A stretch of 24,000 bases of DNA from Chitinophagaceae bacterium (GCA_965246785.1 CBDFFM010000029.1:20428-44427); one strand, 5' to 3'; shown: positions 2,970 through 19,025, numbered from the stretch's first letter. Made by a program: numbers and translations. The notes: generated by a model not told the origin, from the letters alone.

Positions 2970-3392
2970 CTAAAAGCTCCGCCCTTCCAAAGCTGCCACC
3001 TGCGCCCGCAACTCCGCCGGCAGCGGATACTTCTCAGCCCTGCGGTAATCATACAGCACTACTATATCGTAGCCTTCCGCAGCCAGCTCGCCGCGCTCAT
3101 TCATTATCTGATGGTAGAGCGCAAAGGAAGTTGTCCGCATTTCCGTCACAGACACCTGTACCGTAATCTTGCCCGGATAATGCAGCGCCTTGCGGAACTC
3201 GCAGCGCGTGGAGGCAAGCAGCGGGCCGATGCCTTTCTCTGCATACCAATTCGTAAGGCCCAGCCGCTCCCAGTAATGCAGCCGGGAGGCTTGCAGGTAT
3301 TTGAAGTAAGAGACGTTGTTGATGTGGCCGAAGAGGTCAAGCTCGCTCCAGTCAAGGCGTAGCTCCAGGCGGGATGGGAAGGCGTGTTCCAT
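2970..3392 (-). CDS. hotdog-fold acyl-CoA thioesterase (4HBT/YbgC-like)
   Basis: 'DWSELDLFGHINNVSYFKYLQASRLHYW' matches the 4HBT thioesterase N-terminal catalytic Asp region. 140 aa is a typical size. It starts 22 bp downstream of the ABC ATPase gene on the same strand. Confidence 0.8.
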   Translation of the reverse strand: MEHAFPSRLELRLDWSELDLFGHINNVSYFKYLQASRLHYWERLGLTNWYAEKGIGPLLASTRCEFRKALHYPGKITVQVSVTEMRTTSFALYHQIMNERGELAAEGYDIVVLYDYRRAEKYPLPAELRAQVAALEGRSF

Positions 3393-3414
3393 TTGCCTGC
3401 AAAGGACGCAAAGC

Positions 3415-4089
3415 CTACGCTAAGGGATGCCGCCGCTCTTCCACAATGGCCCCATCCCGCATCACGAGCGTTCTATCTGTGCGGGCGGCGAGGGCCTCAT
3501 TGTGGGTAATGAGTATGATGGTCTGCCCCATGTCCGTTCTCAGGGAAAGAAAGAGGTTATGAATGGCCCCGGCATTGGCCGTATCCAGATTGCCCGTAGG
3601 CTCATCGGCCATGAGGATGGCGGGCTTGCCAACGAGCGCCCGCGCAATGGCCACGCGCTGCGCCTCTCCGCCGGACAGCTCCGACGGCTTGTGGCTGCCG
3701 CGCGCGCCGAGGCCTACGCGCTCCAGCATTTCCGCCGCAGTATTAAGCGCCGCTTTACGGCCTTTGCCGCCTATCCATAGGGGCATCGCCACATTCTCTA
3801 AAGCCGAAAACTCGGGCAGGAGATGGTGCTGCTGAAATACGAAGCCCAGTTGCTCATTGCGAAAGCGCGCCTGCTTACTTGAACCGAGGCCAAACACGTC
3901 CGTATCGCGGATGCGAACTGTGCCTTTATCGGGCTTGTCTAACGCTCCTAATAGATGCAGCAGCGTGCTCTTGCCCGCGCCGGAAGGCCCGATGATGGCC
4001 ACCATCTCACCCTCTGCCACGTCCAGCGATACGTCGCGCACGACGGTAAGTTTATCGTAGGATTTGGTGAGGTGAGAAGCGCTAAGCAC
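3415..4089 (-). CDS. ABC transporter ATP-binding protein, LolD/MacB-type
   Basis: Walker A GPSGAGKST, signature LSGGEAQRVAIARAL, Walker B ILMADEPTGNLD, and 'FRNEQLGFVFQQHHLLPEFSALENV'. The start codon is GTG. Confidence 0.9.
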   Translation of the reverse strand: MLSASHLTKSYDKLTVVRDVSLDVAEGEMVAIIGPSGAGKSTLLHLLGALDKPDKGTVRIRDTDVFGLGSSKQARFRNEQLGFVFQQHHLLPEFSALENVAMPLWIGGKGRKAALNTAAEMLERVGLGARGSHKPSELSGGEAQRVAIARALVGKPAILMADEPTGNLDTANAGAIHNLFLSLRTDMGQTIILITHNEALAARTDRTLVMRDGAIVEERRHPLA

Positions 4090-4118
4090 AATACGTTATC
4101 CGGGTCGGCGGCACAATT

Positions 4119-4162
4119 TCCAACAATTGTCCAACAACTGTCCAACAATCGTCTAACCACCA
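4119..4162 (+). repeat. three and a half tandem copies of an 11-bp unit TCCAACAAYTG
   Basis: tccaacaattg / tccaacaactg / tccaacaatcg / tctaaccacca, read directly. Located in the divergent intergenic region between the ABC ATPase and DUF2795 genes. Confidence 0.8.
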
Positions 4163-4211
4163 TTACGCGGCACAAGATTTTTTACCCGCTTTCGCGGAAA
4201 CCCTTTTCCCC

Positions 4212-4219
4212 TACATTTG
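4212..4219 (+). promoter_or_regulatory. -7 box TACATTTG for the DUF2795 gene
   Basis: Exact TAnnTTTG, 36 nt upstream of the ATG at 4256. Confidence 0.4.
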
Positions 4220-4255
4220 CCCGCATTCTCTAAAAAAATACCTGACAATTAAAAT

Positions 4256-4477
4256 ATGTTCTGGACCCTTGAACTGGCCTCGCATCTTGAAGAAGCGCCC
4301 TGGCCTGCCACCAAAGACGAGCTGATTGACTACGCCATCCGCTCCGGCGCTCCGCTTGAGGTTGTAGAAAATCTTCAGGAGCTGGATACTGAAGACGAAA
4401 TCTACGAAGGCATAGAAGATATCTGGCCCGATTATCCCACTCAGGAGGACTTCTTCTTTAATGAGGATGAGTACTGA
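4256..4477 (+). CDS. DUF2795 domain protein (73 aa, acidic)
   Basis: 'LEEAPWPATKDELIDYAIRSGAPLEVVENLQELD' fits the DUF2795 consensus as I recall it (fPa.kdeLi..A...ga...v...l). Confidence 0.75.
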   Translation: MFWTLELASHLEEAPWPATKDELIDYAIRSGAPLEVVENLQELDTEDEIYEGIEDIWPDYPTQEDFFFNEDEY

Positions 4478-4498
4478 GCCTTCCCTAAACCATTAAAT

Positions 4499-4527
4499 AA
4501 ACCCCGCTGCGATGCGGGGTTTTTTGT
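4499..4527 (+). terminator. rho-independent terminator
   Basis: aaaccccgc-tgcgat-gcggggtttttt: GC-rich stem followed by a T-run, 22 nt after the DUF2795 stop. Confidence 0.8.
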
Positions 4528-4556
4528 TGGAAGCGCTGCCATTATTGCCGGAAGCT

Positions 4557-4615
4557 GCCGTTTTTGCCTTCGCACCGAGCATTTACGGTCTTACACCGGG
4601 CGTTTACGCACTTTG
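4557..4615. repeat. 21-bp tandem repeat array, left part (about 3 units, the last cut by the IS)
   Basis: Units start at 4557 (degenerate), 4578 (agcatttacggtcttacaccg) and 4599 (ggcgtttacgcactttg, 17 nt, then the IS end). Confidence 0.8.
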
Positions 4616-5690
4616 AACCTGAGTTCGGTTTAAGCGGCGATTAATAATTGCTGTTGTTGTTGGAAAGCGGCGATGAGCTTTGGGTTTGTTTCCTCGATAT
4701 CTTTTCTGATAGAAGGCTTCTTGGGAAAGAAAGAATAAGCGGCTATGGCGCTCATCAGGTTCAGCAGAAAGCCGTTCAGAGAACGGTGCCTTGTATGCTC
4801 TACCTGGCAGATATTCTTTAGCTCGTCATTGACCGTTTCTATCACTGAACGCTTGCGCAAGAGCAGCTTCTCTTCATTGCTCAGTGCCTTATCCTTCATG
4901 TTCCTTCGCACTGCAGTTATAAGCTGGATGCCGTTGCCAAAGAGCATATCGGTAAGCGCTTTTGAGATGTAGCCCTTATCGCCGAAGAGCTTGCCAAACA
5001 GCTTCTCCGTAAGGGTAGTAATAGCCTTTGCATTCCGGTCATCTACATTGGCTTTACTCAGGTAGAAAGACAGAATCTCTCCCTTATCATTGATCACCAG
5101 GTGCAGCTTGAATCCGTAGAACCAGCCCATAGTGCTCTTGCCAATTTTAGCTATGCCAGCAAAGGTTTTGTTGCGGCGGATGCGCTTGTTGTGACATACC
5201 CGAAGAACGGTAGAATCAATAAAGGAGATGCCGGTGCATTCGCCCCGGCAGCAGTGATGGAGAAAAAGCATAAAGGCCACTGCGCAGCGGTGGCTGAGCT
5301 CTACAAAGCGGTTGTAGGAGACAAGGTTGGGGAAGCTGTCTTTGAGATGAACGCAGGCGTATTGGGTGTAGAAGAACTTGAAGTTTCTGAATCCGCCGGA
5401 ATGAAAAGCAATGAGCATGGAAATGATTTCAGAATCGCACAGCGATGCTTTCCGGTTGCGGGTTTTGGTTCCATTCGAATGGTCGAGGAGCAATTGATGG
5501 ATGGGGTGTTCGAAAAGCAGGCAGAAATCATCTACGGCAACGAAAATTTCGGTTACTTTGTCAGCGAATAGCGGTGTGTTCATTTTTGATGTGAGTTGTT
5601 TTTAGTCAATCACCTATACATCAAAAACAACGCCGCTATTCGCTTTTTAAGCCACTACTTTTCCACAACTTCTTATCCCGAACTCAGGTT
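4616..5690 (-). mobile_element. IS982-family insertion sequence (1075 bp)
   Basis: 13-bp perfect terminal inverted repeats: aacctgagttcgg (4616-4628) and ccgaactcaggtt (5678-5690). Partial matches continue inward. It encloses one DDE transposase gene. No target duplication could be resolved. Confidence 0.85.
4630..5583 (-). CDS. IS982 family DDE transposase (317 aa, intact)
   Basis: 'IDSTVLRVCHNKRIRRNKTFAGIAKIGKSTMGWFYGFKLHLVINDKGEILSF', 'LFGDKGYISK' and 'RSVIETVNDELKN' match the IS982 D..D..E pattern. Confidence 0.9.
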   Translation of the reverse strand: MNTPLFADKVTEIFVAVDDFCLLFEHPIHQLLLDHSNGTKTRNRKASLCDSEIISMLIAFHSGGFRNFKFFYTQYACVHLKDSFPNLVSYNRFVELSHRCAVAFMLFLHHCCRGECTGISFIDSTVLRVCHNKRIRRNKTFAGIAKIGKSTMGWFYGFKLHLVINDKGEILSFYLSKANVDDRNAKAITTLTEKLFGKLFGDKGYISKALTDMLFGNGIQLITAVRRNMKDKALSNEEKLLLRKRSVIETVNDELKNICQVEHTRHRSLNGFLLNLMSAIAAYSFFPKKPSIRKDIEETNPKLIAAFQQQQQLLIAA

Positions 5691-11854: not shown

Positions 11855-11874
11855 GGGACTCACTTTTAATAGAA

Positions 11875-11905
11875 AGGCCTGCGACGTTTATCGCAGGCCT
11901 TTTTC
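11875..11905 (+). terminator. rho-independent terminator
   Basis: aggcctgcga-cgttta-tcgcaggcct followed by ttttt, 21 nt after the stop at 11854. Confidence 0.85.
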
Positions 11906-12421
11906 TTTTAGCAAGGGCTGACAGGGCAAAGTGGGAGTATGTCATACTCCAGATGGGGAGGAAACTATAAGGAGGTATGAAGGAGCTATGGAGGAAGGGC
12001 GCCGGATTTGACCTTTTCTGCCTGACTGATGCCGGGGGGTTCAAGACGATCACCGTCTTTACCGGCCCCATTTTTCGTTGTAAGATTTTTCCCGTGCATC
12101 GGCCTCGCGGTGCATCTGGTCGTACATCTCCTGGTCGCGCTCGCGGGCCGTCTTTTCGGGCACCTTGTCGTAAACGACCGGCTCTTTTGAGCCTGCTGCG
12201 GGCGGCTGCCGGCTCGTAAGCAGTAAGCTTCAATTGCTTACCAGCCCGTTCAGGTCTTTTTCTGCCAGGCAGTTCTTGAACTGCTTGTTTTTCATGCAGG
12301 AATATGCGGCGTATCGGCGAAACAAGATATGGACGTGGCGGCAAAAAATCGTAAACGGAATGCGCTGCCACTCGGCGAGAGCAATACGGGCACCGGCCCG
12401 ATTTTGTTTTTTAATGATGCT

Positions 12422-12691
12422 ATGGCAGATGTGCACAGCAAGGCGACGCGGAGCTATAACATGAGCCGCATAAAGGGGAAGGATACGAAGCCCGAAATGC
12501 TGGTGCGCCGCTACCTCCATGGGCAGGGCTTCCGCTACCGGCTGCATGTGAAAGACCTGCCGGGCAAGCCGGATATTGTACTGCCCAGATACCGGACGGT
12601 GATTTTTGTGCACGGTTGCTTCTGGCACAGGCATGAAGGGTGCAGATACTTTGTCGTGAAGGAGACGGTACATTTAAGCATCGCTATATAA
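12422..12691 (+). pseudogene. vsr: 3'-truncated very-short-patch repair endonuclease (vsr) remnant, 89 codons
   Basis: 'MADVHSKATRSYNMSRIKGKDTKPEMLVRRYLHGQGFRYRLHVKDLPGKPDIVLPRYRTVIFVHGCFWHRHEGCRYF' aligns with the first ~78 residues of E. coli Vsr (MADVHDKATRSKNM..HGCFWHHHHC). Similarity then ends (VVKETVHLSIAI*). The ~60-70 C-terminal residues, including the last zinc-ligand Cys region, are missing. Confidence 0.75.
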
Positions 12692-12709
12692 ATTCTATTT
12701 CTTGGCCTG

Positions 12710-14686
12710 ATGCAACGATTCTTCTACAGTAATTCTATTGCTGATTTCAAAACACAATCAGACGATGAAATTTTAGGCATTCTCAGCCGAGAAAATTCTT
12801 TTTCACTTGAACAGCTTCAACGCGATGCTTGGTTACGTCAAATAAGTGTTCTCAAACGATGCTTACAAGGCATAGAAGGGCAACTTTATCTTGAGTATTC
12901 CATTCCGCGTATGGGAAGGCGTATTGATGCGCTATTGCTTGTCAATGGCGTAATAGTCGTTTTGGAATTTAAGGTTGGTGCCACGCAGTATTTACAAGCA
13001 GACTATGAGCAGGTTTGGGACTATGCGCTTGATTTGCGGAACTTCCATGAAACAAGTCACACAGTTCCAATTCTCCCGGTTCTCATTGCAACATCAGCAC
13101 AGCCGGTAAGCATTGAGATAGTTACTACGCCACAGCATACTGGCATTTATTTTCCGGTAAAATGCAATGCCCAAACATTGCATTTACTGTTTCAAAACAT
13201 CATATTCACGGCAGGTGAAATCAGCATAGACCCGGCGCATTGGGAAGCCGGGCGATACAAGCCAACGCCTACAATTATTGAAGCTGCGATTGCCTTATAT
13301 AGTCAACACTCTGTCGCAGACATTACGCGAAGTGATGCCAGCGCTACTAATCTTTCTGAAACAAGCGGCGCGGTCTTGCAAATCATTGAGGATGCAAAGG
13401 CGCATAGTAAAAAGTCTATTTGCTTTGTAACAGGAGTACCGGGCGCAGGGAAAACGTTGGTCGGCCTTGATATTGCCACCAAGAACATTGATAAAGAAGT
13501 AGGAAGCCATGCAGTTTTTCTTTCCGGAAATGGGCCACTGGTTGCTATACTTAGAGAAGCTTTAGTGCGAGACAAAGTAGCGCGCGAGAAGGAGAAGAAC
13601 AATCGCATTACTAAGAGCGAAGCCGGCAGAGGCGTAAAAGCCTTTATCCAAAACGTCCATGAATTTCGTGATGAGGGTTTGCAGGATAAGGTCAATCCGC
13701 CAGAGGAGCACATCGCCATTTTTGATGAAGCACAGCGTGCATGGAACAAGGTTCAGACGGCGACGTTCATGCAGCAAAAACGAGGTGAAGAGAATTTTCA
13801 ATTATCAGAACCAGCCTTCCTAATCTCGTGCTTAGATAGGCACCAAGATTGGTCAGTTGTGGTGTGTCTTGTCGGAGGCGGGCAAGAAATAAATACTGGC
13901 GAGGGCGGTATTGCCGAGTGGTTGAATGCCTTGAATGAGCATTTCCCAGAGTGGCACATTTACATCTCATCACGCCTGCAAGACACAGAATATTCATCAG
14001 GACAAGCTTTACAGCAATTAGAAGGCAAGCCGAATGTGTCTTTAATGGATGAGCTTCATTTGTCCGTATCAATGCGCTCGTTCCGCGCAGAGCATTTAGC
14101 CGCTTTTGTAAAAGCTGCATTGGACTTAGATGTAGTAGTTGCGCGCGAACATTATAAAAGCATACAGGATGCCTATCCAATAGTAATTACCCGAGACTTG
14201 ACCAAGGCAAAGCGCTGGCTAAAAAGCAAAGCAAGCGGCAGTGAGCGGTATGGATTATTAGTTTCCTCGCAGGCAGTGCGGCTAAAGCCACATGCCATTG
14301 ATGTCCGTTATCAGATAGACCCTGTAGTTTGGTTTTTGAATGATAGGGACGACATACGTTCCTCCTATTATCTTGAGGATGTAGCTACTGAGTTTAAGGT
14401 GCAAGGGCTTGAGTTAGATTGGACGTGTGTAACGTGGGACGCAGATTTCCGCTATAATGGCAATGATTGGAAGCACTTTTCTTTCCGCGGTAATAAGTGG
14501 CAGCGTGTATTAAACGAGGAGCGGAAGAAATACTTGAAGAATGCCTATCGCGTTCTTCTAACCCGTGCCCGGCAAGGGATGGTGCTTGTTGTGCCCGAAG
14601 GCGATGCAGAAGATGTTACCAGAAGCTCTGAATTTTACGATGGAACGTGGGAATATTTGGTAAACTTGGGCCTGCAAATCATTTAA
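12710..14686 (+). CDS. DUF2075-family protein: N-terminal PD-(D/E)xK-like nuclease core + P-loop SF1-like (Schlafen group-III-type) helicase domain
   Basis: 'GRRIDALLLVNGVIVVLEFK' (D73..E86-x-K88). Walker A GVPGAGKT (nt 13433-13456). Walker B 'IAIFDEAQRAW', then 'LVGGGQEINTGE' and C-terminal 'YRVLLTRARQGMVLVVPEG'. GC is markedly lower than in the flanks. Confidence 0.85.
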   Translation: MQRFFYSNSIADFKTQSDDEILGILSRENSFSLEQLQRDAWLRQISVLKRCLQGIEGQLYLEYSIPRMGRRIDALLLVNGVIVVLEFKVGATQYLQADYEQVWDYALDLRNFHETSHTVPILPVLIATSAQPVSIEIVTTPQHTGIYFPVKCNAQTLHLLFQNIIFTAGEISIDPAHWEAGRYKPTPTIIEAAIALYSQHSVADITRSDASATNLSETSGAVLQIIEDAKAHSKKSICFVTGVPGAGKTLVGLDIATKNIDKEVGSHAVFLSGNGPLVAILREALVRDKVAREKEKNNRITKSEAGRGVKAFIQNVHEFRDEGLQDKVNPPEEHIAIFDEAQRAWNKVQTATFMQQKRGEENFQLSEPAFLISCLDRHQDWSVVVCLVGGGQEINTGEGGIAEWLNALNEHFPEWHIYISSRLQDTEYSSGQALQQLEGKPNVSLMDELHLSVSMRSFRAEHLAAFVKAALDLDVVVAREHYKSIQDAYPIVITRDLTKAKRWLKSKASGSERYGLLVSSQAVRLKPHAIDVRYQIDPVVWFLNDRDDIRSSYYLEDVATEFKVQGLELDWTCVTWDADFRYNGNDWKHFSFRGNKWQRVLNEERKKYLKNAYRVLLTRARQGMVLVVPEGDAEDVTRSSEFYDGTWEYLVNLGLQII

Positions 14687-14698
14687 CCAAGAACTATA

Positions 14699-14923
14699 AT
14701 GGAAGATTACAAACTTCTTGAAACCCTCACTGACCTTGCCTTTGCCGCAGGCAGCTCCGGCTATTATTCCGGCGATAGCCGCTCTGATATGGAGTCAATC
14801 ATTTGGCTTGCAAAAGAATTTCAACAAGTTCACCAGTCAACAGACTGGCATGAGCAAGACTACATTTCTACTGTAGATGCTTTTGCAGAGCAGCATTTAC
14901 GAACAGCAATTCTACGTAGCTGA
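14699..14923 (+). CDS. small acidic hypothetical protein (74 aa)
   Basis: ATG 12 nt after the DUF2075 stop, on the same strand and with the same low GC. 13 Asp/Glu versus 5 Lys/Arg. Its last 12 nt overlap the 3' end of the convergent Fic gene. No recognisable motif. Confidence 0.5.
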   Translation: MEDYKLLETLTDLAFAAGSSGYYSGDSRSDMESIIWLAKEFQQVHQSTDWHEQDYISTVDAFAEQHLRTAILRS

Positions 14924-16057
14924 AAACAACTCCGTGTACCGCGAAAACACAAACAACCTATTCCGGCTCCGCCCCGTAGCTTCGCCCACAATCCCCGCCT
15001 GCTCAAAAGTATCCATCAGCTCACCCGCCGCTTTCTTGCTCAGGCTGCATGCTTCCTGCACATCCTTAATGTTCACTACCGGATGCTGAAACAGGCGGTT
15101 GAGCAGCAGCAGCGCAGGCCGGGCGCGCCGGCCCCAGCCCGCCTGTATTTCCCCTTCCAGCTTTTGCTTCAACAGCACCACCTCCGATAAGGTAGCCACC
15201 GCCTGCGCCGCCGTCTGCTCCACGCCGGTCAGGAAATATCTTAGCCACTGCGCCATGTCGCTGGTCTTACGCACGCGGGTCAGGTTGTCGTAGTACAGCG
15301 ATTTGTTCTTCTCAAACCATGCGGAGAGGTACAGCAGCGGCTTGCTCATGATGCCCTTATCCATGAGGAAGAGCGTAATAAGCAGCCGCCCGATGCGGCC
15401 ATTGCCATCCAGAAACGGGTGGATGGTCTCAAACTGGTAATGCGCAATGCCGATGCGAATCAGCGCGGGCACATTGAGCTTGTCGTTGTGCAGAAAATTC
15501 TCCAGGTCGCCCATCAGCTCATTCAGGTGGATGTGCGACGGCGGCACAAACACCGCATCCGCCGGACTGCTGCCACCAATCCAGTTCTGACTGCTGCGGT
15601 ACTCGCCCGGCAATTTTTCCTGACCCCTTACACCTTCCATCAGGTAGCCATGCGACCGACGCAGCAGGCGGGATGACAGCGGCAGATTGTCAAGGCTTTT
15701 TATGGCATCGTTGAGGGCGTGCGTGTAATTATTGACTTCCTTCCAGTCGTTGCGGCGTTCAGGCAGTATCTCCTCTTCCGGCAGCATCGCTTCCTGAATA
15801 TTTGTCTGCGTGCCTTCTATCCGGCTGGACACGACGGCTTCCTTCGCTACGTGCAGCTCAATAAACAGGTCTATATTGGGCACCAGATGCGCATAGGCAT
15901 TCAGCTCGCCGAGGCGGATAGAGGCGCGCTCCAATAAAGTATTCAGTTGCGCATCATTCCATTGCCACTGGTCATTTATTTTGGAAGGAACGAAGTATTT
16001 GTATCCGCTGCCGGGCTGCCAATGGCCGGAAGAATACTTTTCAAGTTGAATGGCCAT
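14912..16057 (-). CDS. Fic family protein (class II, auto-inhibited AMPylase type) with Fic_N and C-terminal winged-helix region
   Basis: Fic motif 'HPFLDGNGRIGRLL'. N-terminal inhibitory-helix motif [ST]xxxE[GN] as 'SSRIEG'. C-terminal 'VNIKDVQEACSLSKKAAGELMDTFEQAGIV' is wHTH-like. Start set to the ATG at 16057; the track start at 16078 is a TTG. Confidence 0.9.
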   Translation of the reverse strand: MAIQLEKYSSGHWQPGSGYKYFVPSKINDQWQWNDAQLNTLLERASIRLGELNAYAHLVPNIDLFIELHVAKEAVVSSRIEGTQTNIQEAMLPEEEILPERRNDWKEVNNYTHALNDAIKSLDNLPLSSRLLRRSHGYLMEGVRGQEKLPGEYRSSQNWIGGSSPADAVFVPPSHIHLNELMGDLENFLHNDKLNVPALIRIGIAHYQFETIHPFLDGNGRIGRLLITLFLMDKGIMSKPLLYLSAWFEKNKSLYYDNLTRVRKTSDMAQWLRYFLTGVEQTAAQAVATLSEVVLLKQKLEGEIQAGWGRRARPALLLLNRLFQHPVVNIKDVQEACSLSKKAAGELMDTFEQAGIVGEATGRSRNRLFVFSRYTELFSAT

Positions 16058-16074
16058 GGCGGTTTTATTCTGCT

Positions 16075-16146
16075 CCAAAAGTAAACTAAGGAAACCGTTA
16101 GTTTACTTTCAGCCCCAAAAGTAAACTAACGAAAATCATAGTTTAC
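16075..16146 (-). promoter_or_regulatory. duplicated promoter/operator module upstream of fic
   Basis: 15-nt direct repeat ccaaaagtaaactaa at 16075-16089 and 16115-16129. Each copy holds a -7 box TACTTTTG on the fic strand (plus caaaagta at 16076-83 and 16116-23). Each -7 box overlaps one arm of a palindrome GTAAACTA-N10-TAGTTTAC (16081-16106, extendable to 12-bp arms at 16078-16109; and 16121-16146). Confidence 0.55.
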
Positions 16147-17827: not shown

Positions 17828-18190
17828 TCACGATGCCAAAGGCAAAAACACCTCAGCAGGCAAATTAAAGAACACCCTGAGCTTCCGCGCCATCTTCAGC
17901 GTCAGCTCCCGCTTGCCCGAAAGTATGGCCGATACATGGCCTTTGCTGCCAATCACCGACTCCAGGTCTTTGGCCTTCAGGCCGCGTTCCTCCATCTTCA
18001 GCTTAATGATGTCTAGGGGATTAGCCGCAGGCAGCGCATAATGCCGCCCGTCGTAATCCGCCACCAGTACAATGAGCAGCTCCAACTCTTCCCCCTCCGG
18101 CGTGCCCTGCGGGGCATGGAAAATATCCATCAGCCTGCCTGTAGCCGCTTTGTAATCTTCTTCGGTTTTCAATACTTTCCAATGGCGCAT
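17828..18190 (-). CDS. higA: HigA-type HTH antitoxin / XRE-like regulator
   Basis: C-terminal 'LESVIGSKGHVSAILSGKRELTLKMARKLRVFFNLPAEVFL' parallels E. coli HigA '..EIGSKSMVSRVLSGKRKLTLEHAKKLATRFGISPALF', with an N-terminal helical extension as in HigA. Confidence 0.8.
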   Translation of the reverse strand: MRHWKVLKTEEDYKAATGRLMDIFHAPQGTPEGEELELLIVLVADYDGRHYALPAANPLDIIKLKMEERGLKAKDLESVIGSKGHVSAILSGKRELTLKMARKLRVFFNLPAEVFLPLAS

Positions 18191-18192
18191 GG

Positions 18193-18288
18193 CTAAGGCT
18201 TTTTAAAGTTGTTGATGCTGGTATCGTAGGTAATGGTAGCGGCATCTATGCGGTTATACGCTGCCAGCACGTCCACACCGGCACCCAT
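18193..18288 (-). pseudogene. higB: probable relic of the C-terminus of a HigB-family toxin (31 codons)
   Basis: Hand translation gives MGAGVDVLAAYNRIDAATITYDTSINNFKKP*. 'AAYNRIDAATI' resembles the HigB C-terminal consensus '..GTHAEYDKIDA.TI' as I recall it. The stop lies 2 nt before the higA ATG, a typical higBA junction. The frame closes with TAA 12 codons upstream of the ATG, so about 60 N-terminal toxin residues are absent. Confidence 0.45.
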
Positions 18289-19025
18289 TAATTCTTCACC
18301 GCAGGCCCTTCGGAGCCGTACATCTTAGTGATGTCGGTAATCAGTTGACAACGTTTCGCAAACTCATTCCATACGGCGTATTGAAGGCGGATTTCCTCCA
18401 TTAGCGTATTGTAGTTCACAATTATATCGTTGCGGTATTGTATGGCGTGCTCCCACCGCTCGCGATGGAAGCTGAGGGTTCCACGAAACCGCTCGTCCGC
18501 ACGGTCAAAGCCCAAAAAGTCTATGGAGTGTCGCCCAGCCTCGGCATAGAGGAGGTGCTTATCGTCTCTCACGGCATCCCATAGCGTATCGTCGTCGCTG
18601 TACAGGCGCTCCCGGAATTCTTCATGCACCTTGCCCTTCGCGTTAAGGTCTGCCGACAAGATGCCGAGTGTCTCTTCAAATGCGGCTATAGCGTCACGCG
18701 CAGCATTAAAGGCATCTGCGAAGGCATCGGCAGGGCCGGTAATCTTGAGCCGGAAGGCAGGCAGCACGGCTTCTGCCGCTTGCTGCGCTGCGGCAATAGC
18801 CGGCGCCACGGTACTGCTGAGGCTGGAACGCACTTCGCCCACATGCTTATCAAAACGGCTAAAGGCGTCGTAAAGGGCACGCTTAAGCTTGTCCATTTCC
18901 ACAATCTCGTCATGCAGCTTGCTGAAGTTGCTGTACAGCCGCTCATCCACCTCAGACCAAGGAATGCTTTCGTCGTACTCAAACCAGTTGGCTACCAGTG
19001 GCTGCCCGATTTCCTTTTTGCTCAT
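18288..19025 (-). CDS. hypothetical protein, 245 aa, apparently all-helical and acidic (orf245)
   Basis: Clean ORF with its own TAnnTTTG box. Its stop TAA overlaps the ATG of the higB relic (TAATG). No TM segment, signal peptide or catalytic motif I can recognise. Confidence 0.65.
   Translation of the reverse strand: MSKKEIGQPLVANWFEYDESIPWSEVDERLYSNFSKLHDEIVEMDKLKRALYDAFSRFDKHVGEVRSSLSSTVAPAIAAAQQAAEAVLPAFRLKITGPADAFADAFNAARDAIAAFEETLGILSADLNAKGKVHEEFRERLYSDDDTLWDAVRDDKHLLYAEAGRHSIDFLGFDRADERFRGTLSFHRERWEHAIQYRNDIIVNYNTLMEEIRLQYAVWNEFAKRCQLITDITKMYGSEGPAVKN

Follow-up and report, generated by a model that had tools for sequence, protein, structure and literature searches.

An Nhi-like nuclease-helicase gene in a Chitinophagaceae bacterium that was very likely acquired and overwrote a 5-methylcytosine restriction-modification operon

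The vsr-fic interval and its foreign segment

We analyzed a 24,000-nucleotide stretch of DNA from a Chitinophagaceae bacterium (GCA_965246785.1, CBDFFM010000029.1:20428-44427), referred to here in its entirety as the window. An initial annotation, made from the sequence without database searches, had drawn attention to a low-GC region of 2.2 kb described as a cassette that was inserted into vsr and encodes a nuclease-helicase protein together with a small acidic partner, orf74. What lies at this locus (Table 1) is a stub of vsr, an intact gene for a 658-residue protein of the Nhi-like anti-phage family, orf74, and a convergent fic gene. We regard it as highly probable that the region 12660-14698 is an acquired single Nhi-like gene that overwrote a 5-methylcytosine (m5C) restriction-modification (R-M) operon, that the encoded protein acts alone, and that orf74 is separate from it.

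The GC content, computed as a sliding-window profile, is 0.39-0.48 over approximately 12600-14850 as compared with 0.52-0.62 on both flanks, and the GC content at third codon positions (GC3) is 0.43 for the 658-residue gene, 0.75 for the vsr stub, and 0.64-0.78 for the surrounding host genes. The computation thus bears out the low-GC shift that had been described relative to the flanks. The shift had been placed between the end of vsr homology and the fic stop codon, and while the first of these limits coincides with the junction found here (12659/12660), the second does not hold, as the true end is near 14698.

The left junction could be defined at base level, and it is the same as the start that had been annotated. 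The stub matches positions 1-71 of 74 of the Pfam Vsr profile and positions 1-73 of 119 of TIGR00632, and it falls short of a full-length Vsr (approximately 137-156 residues in intact proteins), with only codons 1-79 being homologous; the open reading frame (ORF) extends to 12691 through ten foreign codons and a stop. It is 85-94% identical to the intact 137-139-residue Vsr proteins of Taibaiella, Flavipsychrobacter, Pedobacter, and related organisms (Chitinophagaceae and Sphingobacteriales). DNA homology to the vsr genes of three relatives (L188-L190 in our numbering of loci; 76-85% identity) ends at 12657-12659, and the protein diverges after ...CRYFVV. Given this closeness to intact host-type Vsr and the point at which DNA homology ends, the stub is predicted to be native to the host lineage. 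The alternative that it was co-inherited with the Nhi-like gene was rejected because stub-bearing loci are scattered in the family tree, the nearest relatives of the gene are in other contexts, and both the sequence and the GC3 of the stub resemble those of the host.

The right junction is provided by a contig (L001) that has neither the insert nor vsr and in which an HNH_2 nuclease gene lies upstream of orf74 and fic. Homology to this contig, at 80% DNA identity through fic, begins at 14699, which is the ATG of orf74. From the left end of vsr homology and the right restart of L001 homology, the foreign segment spans about 12660-14698 (∼2,040 bp) and consists of a 50-nt leader, the ORF, and a 12-nt spacer. 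Hence the 2.2-kb cassette proposed as one unit resolves into two separate units. The Nhi-like gene does abut a truncated vsr, as the description of an insertion into vsr implied, but what is seen is a replacement downstream of codon 79, since the other half of vsr was not retained.

In the relatives, vsr heads an operon that continues with a helix-turn-helix (HTH) controller, a C5 DNA methylase, and a restriction enzyme, the latter being of the MvaI/BcnI type in L190 and of the HNH type in L189. A scan of all 24,000 nt of the window revealed no methylase and no R-M system elsewhere. By analogy with these relatives, everything downstream of vsr codon 79 has probably been replaced, with the loss extending across a whole operon in the order vsr, controller, methylase, and restriction enzyme.

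Imperfect repeats of the form CATTTA..AATTCTA had been offered as possible recombination scars at the borders of the cassette. This is not supported, as the right copy is located 200 bp past the junction and the insert-free L001 has exactly the same sequence there. A 14-nt inverted repeat that brackets the ORF (12692-12705 and 14687-14700) was also rejected, as 8.5% of random flank pairings score as high, and over 178 loci the inverted and direct repeats between flanks were not above a shuffled-pair control.

Table 1. Coordinates of the features at the vsr-fic locus, counted from the first nucleotide of the window.
Feature	Position	Strand	Basis
vsr stub, codons 1-79 of host-type Vsr	12422..12659	+	Pfam, TIGR00632, DNA homology, GC3
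Foreign 50-nt leader, left junction to Nhi-like ATG	12660..12709	+	Homology to intact vsr lost
Nhi-like / PADLOC PDC-S41 nuclease-helicase gene, 658 aa	12710..14686	+	Profile and BLASTP matches
Predicted PD-(D/E)XK nuclease core, ∼aa 35-130 (E62, D73, E86, K88)	12812..13099	+	Invariance, model, Foldseek
DUF2075 / SLFN group-III helicase, aa 235-629 (Walker A 242-249, Walker B 339-342)	13412..14596	+	Pfam, invariance, Foldseek
12-nt spacer with right junction	14687..14698	.	blastn homology to L001 starts at 14699
orf74, small acidic protein, outside the Nhi-like insert	14699..14923	+	Codon-position differences vs L001, relatives
fic, SoFic-like, convergent with orf74, 12-nt overlap	14912..16078	-	Pfam Fic_N and Fic, PADLOC SoFic
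CATTTA..AATTCTA repeat, judged not meaningful	12671..12697 (left copy); 14894-14914 (right copy)	+	L001 comparison

The 658-residue protein and its family

Nhi-like is a validated single-gene anti-phage system, designated SG141, from Bacillus cereus FSL H8-0482 (Millman et al., 2022). Profile searches with the 658-residue protein, which had been suggested as a check on its nature, gave a full-length match to the PADLOC model PDC-S41 (PDLC05014; E 2.5e-285, residues 1-656 against positions 1-651 of 657), and the Pfam family SLFN-g3_helicase/DUF2075 (PF09848) covers residues 235-629 (E 6e-81). For direct comparison with the verified B. cereus protein we used the 399 of its 611 residues that are available in the supplement of Millman et al., and by BLASTP these are collinear with the window protein over residues 37-408 (29% identity, E 2e-41). 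The same 399 residues are 96% identical to a plasmid protein of B. thuringiensis which itself matches PDC-S41 (E 6e-114), and in tblastn searches the Bacillus plasmid copies align with the window protein over residues 37-652. Moreover, scaffold 5 of Parapedobacter luteus DSM 22899, which is listed among the Nhi-like homologues in Table S17 of Millman et al., is the genome and contig of our locus L038, and the protein encoded there (659 residues, 59% identity) belongs to the same 658-residue clade as the window protein. On the basis of the PDC-S41 match, the collinear homology, and the Table S17 entry, the window protein is predicted to belong to the Nhi-like family in the sense of Millman et al.

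The view of this gene as a horizontally acquired, single-protein nuclease-helicase of a defense family is therefore upheld by the PDC-S41 match, the foreign GC3, and the patchy distribution described below. On the other hand, the annotation had implied that no characterized system was involved, and this has to be revised as the same architecture and family have been validated as Nhi-like (Millman et al., 2022) and catalogued as PDC-S41. What the window adds to this family is a Bacteroidota-type member. The window protein is matched by the PADLOC models for Nhi and AbiO at the P-loop only, with that of Nhi (PDLC02372; E 7e-7) restricted to residues 231-263, or some 30 residues around the P-loop. 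Neither NCBIfam nor PHROGs has a model for the 658-residue protein or for orf74, and a full-text literature query with 'PDC-S41' gave no match.

All of the nuclease and helicase motifs that had been pointed out in the protein (D73, E86, K88, GVPGAGKT, FDEAQ, GGGQEI, and LLTRARQG) were located, and an alignment of 22 homologues shows no variation in GVPGAGKT, which includes the Walker A lysine K248, in D339-E340-A341-Q342, or at E62, D73, E86, and K88. A Pfam scan of residues 1-237 gave no match, including none to the Schlafen AlbA_2 core. The Pfam match is confined to the helicase domain and none of the modified-base readers (SRA, PUA/EVE, DUF3427, McrB-N, or DpnI_C) was found in the protein; at other family loci such reader domains appear solely in neighboring genes. 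An AlphaFold (AF2) model built from 22 sequences has a mean predicted local distance difference test (pLDDT) score of 67, with 66-92 in the nuclease core and mostly 73-92 in the N-terminal 130 residues. It contains a helix (35-51), three strands (58-64, 71-78, and 81-88), a second helix (96-112), and a further strand (121-127). D73 falls in the strand 71-78 and both E86 and K88 are part of the strand 81-88, and this modeled alpha-beta-beta-beta-alpha-beta topology would be that of a PD-(D/E)XK core. Foldseek comparison with the PDB gave matches that are coherent, though with weak E-values (0.002-0.05). The motor domain retrieves the superfamily 1B (SF1B) helicases RecD, nsp13, Upf1, Dna2, and IGHMBP2, and the best structural match of the N-terminal domain is McrC (probability 0.98-0.99), which is the PD-(D/E)XK subunit of the m5C-dependent enzyme McrBC.

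The window protein can be compared with four known systems. It has in common with Nhi-like of Millman et al. the PADLOC model, the collinear homology, the combination of PD-(D/E)XK and DUF2075 domains, the single-gene layout, and the Bacteroidota member of its own clade in the published homologue list, but it differs in its low identity, its length (658 versus 611 residues), and a host from a Bacteroidota-type phylum. Nhi itself (SERP2475 of Staphylococcus epidermidis) nicks and unwinds phage DNA with a specificity that depends on the phage single-stranded DNA-binding protein (SSB; Bari et al., 2022), and it likewise combines, in one protein, a PD-(D/E)XK nuclease with an SF1B-like helicase that overlaps DUF2075, although there is no meaningful sequence match between the two. 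With McrBC and type IV enzymes the protein shares the coupling of an NTPase motor to a PD-(D/E)XK nuclease, the McrC-like N-terminus, and, through its Bacillus homologue, escape by loss of a phage cytosine-5 methylase (see below), whereas McrBC consists of an AAA+ GTPase and a separate nuclease instead of one polypeptide with an SF1-type helicase, and the window protein has no recognizable m5C reader domain. The eukaryotic group III Schlafens (SLFN5, 11, 13, and 14) have the SLFN-g3_helicase (DUF2075) domain and an antiviral theme in common with it, but they contain the Schlafen AlbA_2 core where the window protein has a PD-(D/E)XK N-terminus.

At 90% identity the scored members of the family form more than 8,000 clusters, and clustering at 50% gives 5,112 representatives (E <= 1e-3). 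The family is carried by at least 598 species of the Genome Taxonomy Database (GTDB) in more than 15 phyla, including Patescibacteria (the Candidate Phyla Radiation, CPR). Members of the 658-residue clade are 655-660 residues long and 55-62% identical to the query, and such uniformity across more than 15 phyla is unusual for a defense protein. The family gene has a mean GC content of 0.44 as compared with 0.50 for its flanks, and it tracks the host (r = 0.88). Copies are found on viral contigs of IMG/VR and on plasmids of Persicobacter and Bacillus, and a single phage record contains one as well. The nearest relatives of the window protein (64-67% identity) adjoin either HigBA or a UvrD-like helicase gene; in the case of the nearest of all (L185), HigB and HigA are directly upstream. 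Across the family the immediate neighbors are highly heterogeneous, and the closest relatives of the window gene are in unrelated contexts. The patchy spread, the plasmid and viral copies, and the differing contexts indicate that the lone gene has often been transferred horizontally, as judged from sequence comparison. No terminal repeats or linked mobility genes that could account for the movement of a lone ORF were seen at the family loci.

Linkage to Dcm and Vsr modules and the proposed mode of action

We surveyed 183 family loci for neighboring genes, using locally built profiles for Vsr and C5 methylases and compiling Pfam families from 148 ORFs on each side. Vsr sequence is present at 17 loci and a C5 methylase at 14, which together amount to 26 of the 183. 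Almost all of these matches lie within 2 kb of the family gene (16 of 17 for vsr and 14 of 14 for dcm, or 30 of 31) and all are within ∼3 kb, with none at 3-6 kb where the sampling of flanks is comparable (binomial p ∼5e-6). In 12 of the 26 linked loci vsr or dcm is truncated, with the cut at or near the Nhi-like gene. The truncated gene is dcm in four of them (L008, L011, L080, and L091), one of which (L080) has the family gene in the opposite orientation to the dcm-vsr remnants, and a vsr stub alone is present in the other eight (window 12422-12659, L067, L114, L136, L137, L141, L022, and L028). In six of these (the window, L067, L114, L136, L137, and L141), what remains is an N-terminal part of vsr that lies upstream in the same orientation; its distance from the gene start is 578 nt in L136 and no more than 180 nt in the other five. 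As they are scattered in the family tree, the stub-bearing loci would represent independent events. An intact C5 methylase adjoins the family gene in ten loci, with the arrangement vsr-dcm-gene in L054 and L144, dcm-gene with a spacing of 38-48 nt on three viral contigs (L090, L094, and L096), and gene-dcm, with the methylase downstream, in a whole clade (L073, L111, L140, L178, and L122). No report of a linkage of Nhi-like genes to Dcm/Vsr modules was found in the literature searched, and it appears to be unreported.

Other than this, the surroundings vary, with 144 Pfam families among the 148 upstream ORFs and 129 among the 148 downstream ORFs, and no gene recurs next to the family gene in a manner that would make it a conserved partner in the 183 loci. 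Over-represented among the neighbors are R-M parts, HNH_2, Fic, toxin-antitoxin genes, and DUF3427, and the families seen repeatedly are C5 DNA_methylase (four upstream and three downstream), HNH_2 (four), RE_HpaII (two), DUF3427 (three), Fic (three), and a second DUF2075 gene (four); N6 and N4 methylase families are absent from the top-25 lists on both sides. HNH_2 (PF13391) genes akin to that of L001 adjoin Nhi-like genes in L111, L122, L126, L116, L165, L154, L132, and L104, and in L126 the HNH_2 domain is fused to the methyl-DNA-binding domain DpnI_C. The second DUF2075 (SLFN-g3_helicase) genes are immediately upstream in 4 of 148 loci and are tandem paralogues. At L125, a protein with AlbA_2 and HATPase_c_4 domains (552-2222) is encoded ∼0.8 kb upstream of the DUF2075 gene (3004-4977), such that this one locus has both halves of a eukaryotic group III Schlafen, each on its own gene.

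We propose that a horizontally acquired, gene-sized segment (12660-14698) carrying one intact Nhi-like (PDC-S41) gene took the place of the distal part of a resident type II m5C R-M operon that comprised vsr, the controller, the C5 methylase, and the endonuclease. The promoter upstream of the remaining 79-codon stub probably now drives the Nhi-like gene by read-through, and orf74 would already have been present beside fic before the insertion. The Nhi-like protein, as a PD-(D/E)XK nuclease fused to an SF1B-like DUF2075 helicase, would act alone and, by analogy with its characterized relatives, would couple ATP-driven translocation or unwinding to the nicking or cleavage of phage DNA. The window thus provides what would be a clean case, at base level, of one defense gene overwriting another.

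It is plausible that recognition is promoted by m5C-modified DNA in the manner of type IV enzymes. SPbeta phages that escape Nhi-like have loss-of-function mutations in the cytosine-5 methylase gene mtbP, and as concluded by Stokar-Avihail et al., methylation probably sensitizes the phage DNA to Nhi-like; m5C-promoted recognition is probable in this family because phages escape the Bacillus homologue in this way. The mtbP escape, the McrC-like nuclease, and the genomic linkage are consistent with type IV-like, m5C-promoted action and with a conflict with resident C5 methylases. The linkage of Nhi-like genes to intact and broken Dcm/Vsr modules also fits the methylase-escape phenotype and could explain how foreign DNA is discriminated from that of the host. 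A more general extension would be that members of the family sense m5C as type IV-like nuclease-helicases and that their establishment often coincides with, or selects for, the destruction of resident C5-methylase operons. The Vsr/C5 linkage in 26 of 183 loci, the truncation in 12 of them, and the escape by methylase loss all point in this direction, but we offer this broader idea tentatively and consider it rather unlikely. Generic turnover in R-M-rich islands is a live alternative for the linkage, as the counts cover Nhi-like loci alone, and the ten loci with an intact adjacent C5 methylase argue against a simple m5C incompatibility.

Several other observations weigh against our proposal. 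A search for an empty site gave no true example, as vsr is all that the relatives with an intact copy of it (L188-L190) have in common with the window. Their flanks are not shared, and what the deleted segment contained is deduced by analogy. A promoter scan of the leader found no convincing sigma-70-type promoter and fewer matches than in shuffled sequence. The helicase part of the model is of low confidence, and the Foldseek E-values are weak. At only 29% identity to the validated protein, the specificity and the trigger may differ, and Nhi relies on phage SSB rather than on methylation.

The initial annotation raised the possibility of a two-gene module in which the DUF2075 protein is paired with orf74, with the acidic orf74 product as regulator, immunity factor, or sensor. 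It is true that orf74 begins 12 nt past the stop codon of the Nhi-like gene on the same strand and evolves as a coding sequence, and that orf74-like genes near the family gene in L150, L105, and L125 are far above the expectation for so rare a family. Yet this amounts to only 4 of 183 loci, with the variable positions +12, +476, -77, and -2600 nt, and the small downstream ORFs of 169 loci include no conserved one (their largest cluster spans 3 of the 169). In L001 orf74 follows the HNH_2 gene and is adjacent to fic, with no DUF2075 gene in that 1.9-kb contig. The presence of orf74-like genes tracks vsr (3 of 17 loci versus 1 of 166; Fisher p 0.0025), and one gene suffices for the validated Nhi-like system. 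The few loci and the lack of a conserved small downstream ORF argue that orf74 is not a fixed partner, at least as far as can be judged from genomic context, and an obligate DUF2075-orf74 pair is largely refuted, making a two-gene module very improbable.

It could also be that the protein is the R component of a classical m5C module of the V-M-R type that is blocked by cognate methylation, and that in the window it is an orphan R left by deletion of dcm. The intact vsr-dcm-gene, dcm-gene, and gene-dcm arrangements and the concentration of vsr and dcm matches within 2 kb of the gene are what such a module would give; however, 86% of the loci have no methylase or vsr nearby, and a solitary classical R would be lethal. 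In addition, the validated homologue protects as a lone gene, phages escape it by loss and not gain of a methylase, and, as seen in L080, the gene occurs in either orientation relative to dcm-vsr remnants, all of which leave an orphan R quite improbable. That this nuclease-helicase has a housekeeping or repair function, or that its gene is a passenger in decay without a defense role in this host, might be entertained because the family is unusually conserved for a defense gene (655-660 residues, ∼60% identity across phyla) and many of its neighbors are ordinary genes. This we regard as extremely improbable in view of the patchy phylogenetic distribution, the foreign composition, the copies on plasmids and viral contigs, the defense-related enrichment among the neighbors, the experimental verification of a homologue as a defense gene, and an intact ORF in which all of the invariant residues are kept.

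orf74, fic, and other features of the window

The orf74 product is acidic (pI 4.45), and the gene has a GC3 of 0.39 that is foreign relative to fic (0.70) and resembles the composition of the HNH_2 gene of L001 (GC 0.44), the stop codon of which is 2 nt before the orf74 ATG in that contig. The differences between the window and L001 copies number 5, 2, and 22 by codon position, corresponding to 18 synonymous and 7 nonsynonymous codon changes, and from this concentration orf74 is predicted to be, or to have recently been, a coding gene. The L001 copy (534-755) has an in-frame TAA at codon 51, beyond which six of seven codon differences are synonymous, and this TAA could reflect an error in the assembly, a site of read-through, or a nonsense mutation that arose recently. 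There is no match to orf74 in Pfam, PADLOC, NCBIfam, or PHROGs, the predicted three-helix fold is of low confidence (pLDDT 59) and unusable, and the family is almost invisible in a database of 5.8 billion proteins, where the sole homologue is the one on L001.

An iterated profile search over 190 loci recovered relatives with 31-37% identity in L150 (2675-2911; +476 nt from the family gene), L105 (5670-5927; -77 nt), and L125 (208-399; -2.6 kb), the last of which directly follows the 3' end of vsr. Two further relatives are on viral contigs: that of L191 (4950-5207) directly follows a gene whose product has an NPPY methyltransferase motif, while that of L192 (4758-5255) is the C-terminal half of a 165-residue protein. 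The pattern …SR……WA(K/Q)EF……W…Y characterizes the family in islands and in the two phage contigs. These contexts suggest that orf74 may belong to methylation-related islands in general, and the family could be a modulator or anti-defense factor of methylation-linked immunity. As a small acidic family common to these islands and to phages, it is a second, modest lead.

The fic gene has a host-like composition and matches PADLOC SoFic (E 2e-115), although its score against the NCBIfam SoFic model NF046030 is 165 where the curated cut-off is 550. Its convergence with orf74, with the 12-nt overlap at 14912-14923, is also kept in L001, and in 3 of 148 loci a Fic gene directly follows the Nhi-like one.

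Elsewhere in the window, the ∼560 bp between a type IX secretion system (T9SS)-cargo gene and the vsr stub (11855-12421) contain no convincing gene, but there is a strong hairpin past the cargo gene and there are terminator-like hairpins at 12266-12287 and 12387-12400. A DDE transposase (4630-5583, minus strand; DDE_Tnp_1_3, E 3e-73) marks an insertion sequence (IS) element 7 kb upstream that has no evident link to the insert. Beyond fic, the minus strand encodes a 245-residue protein without a family match (18288-19025) and a HigA-like HTH_3 protein (17828-18190).

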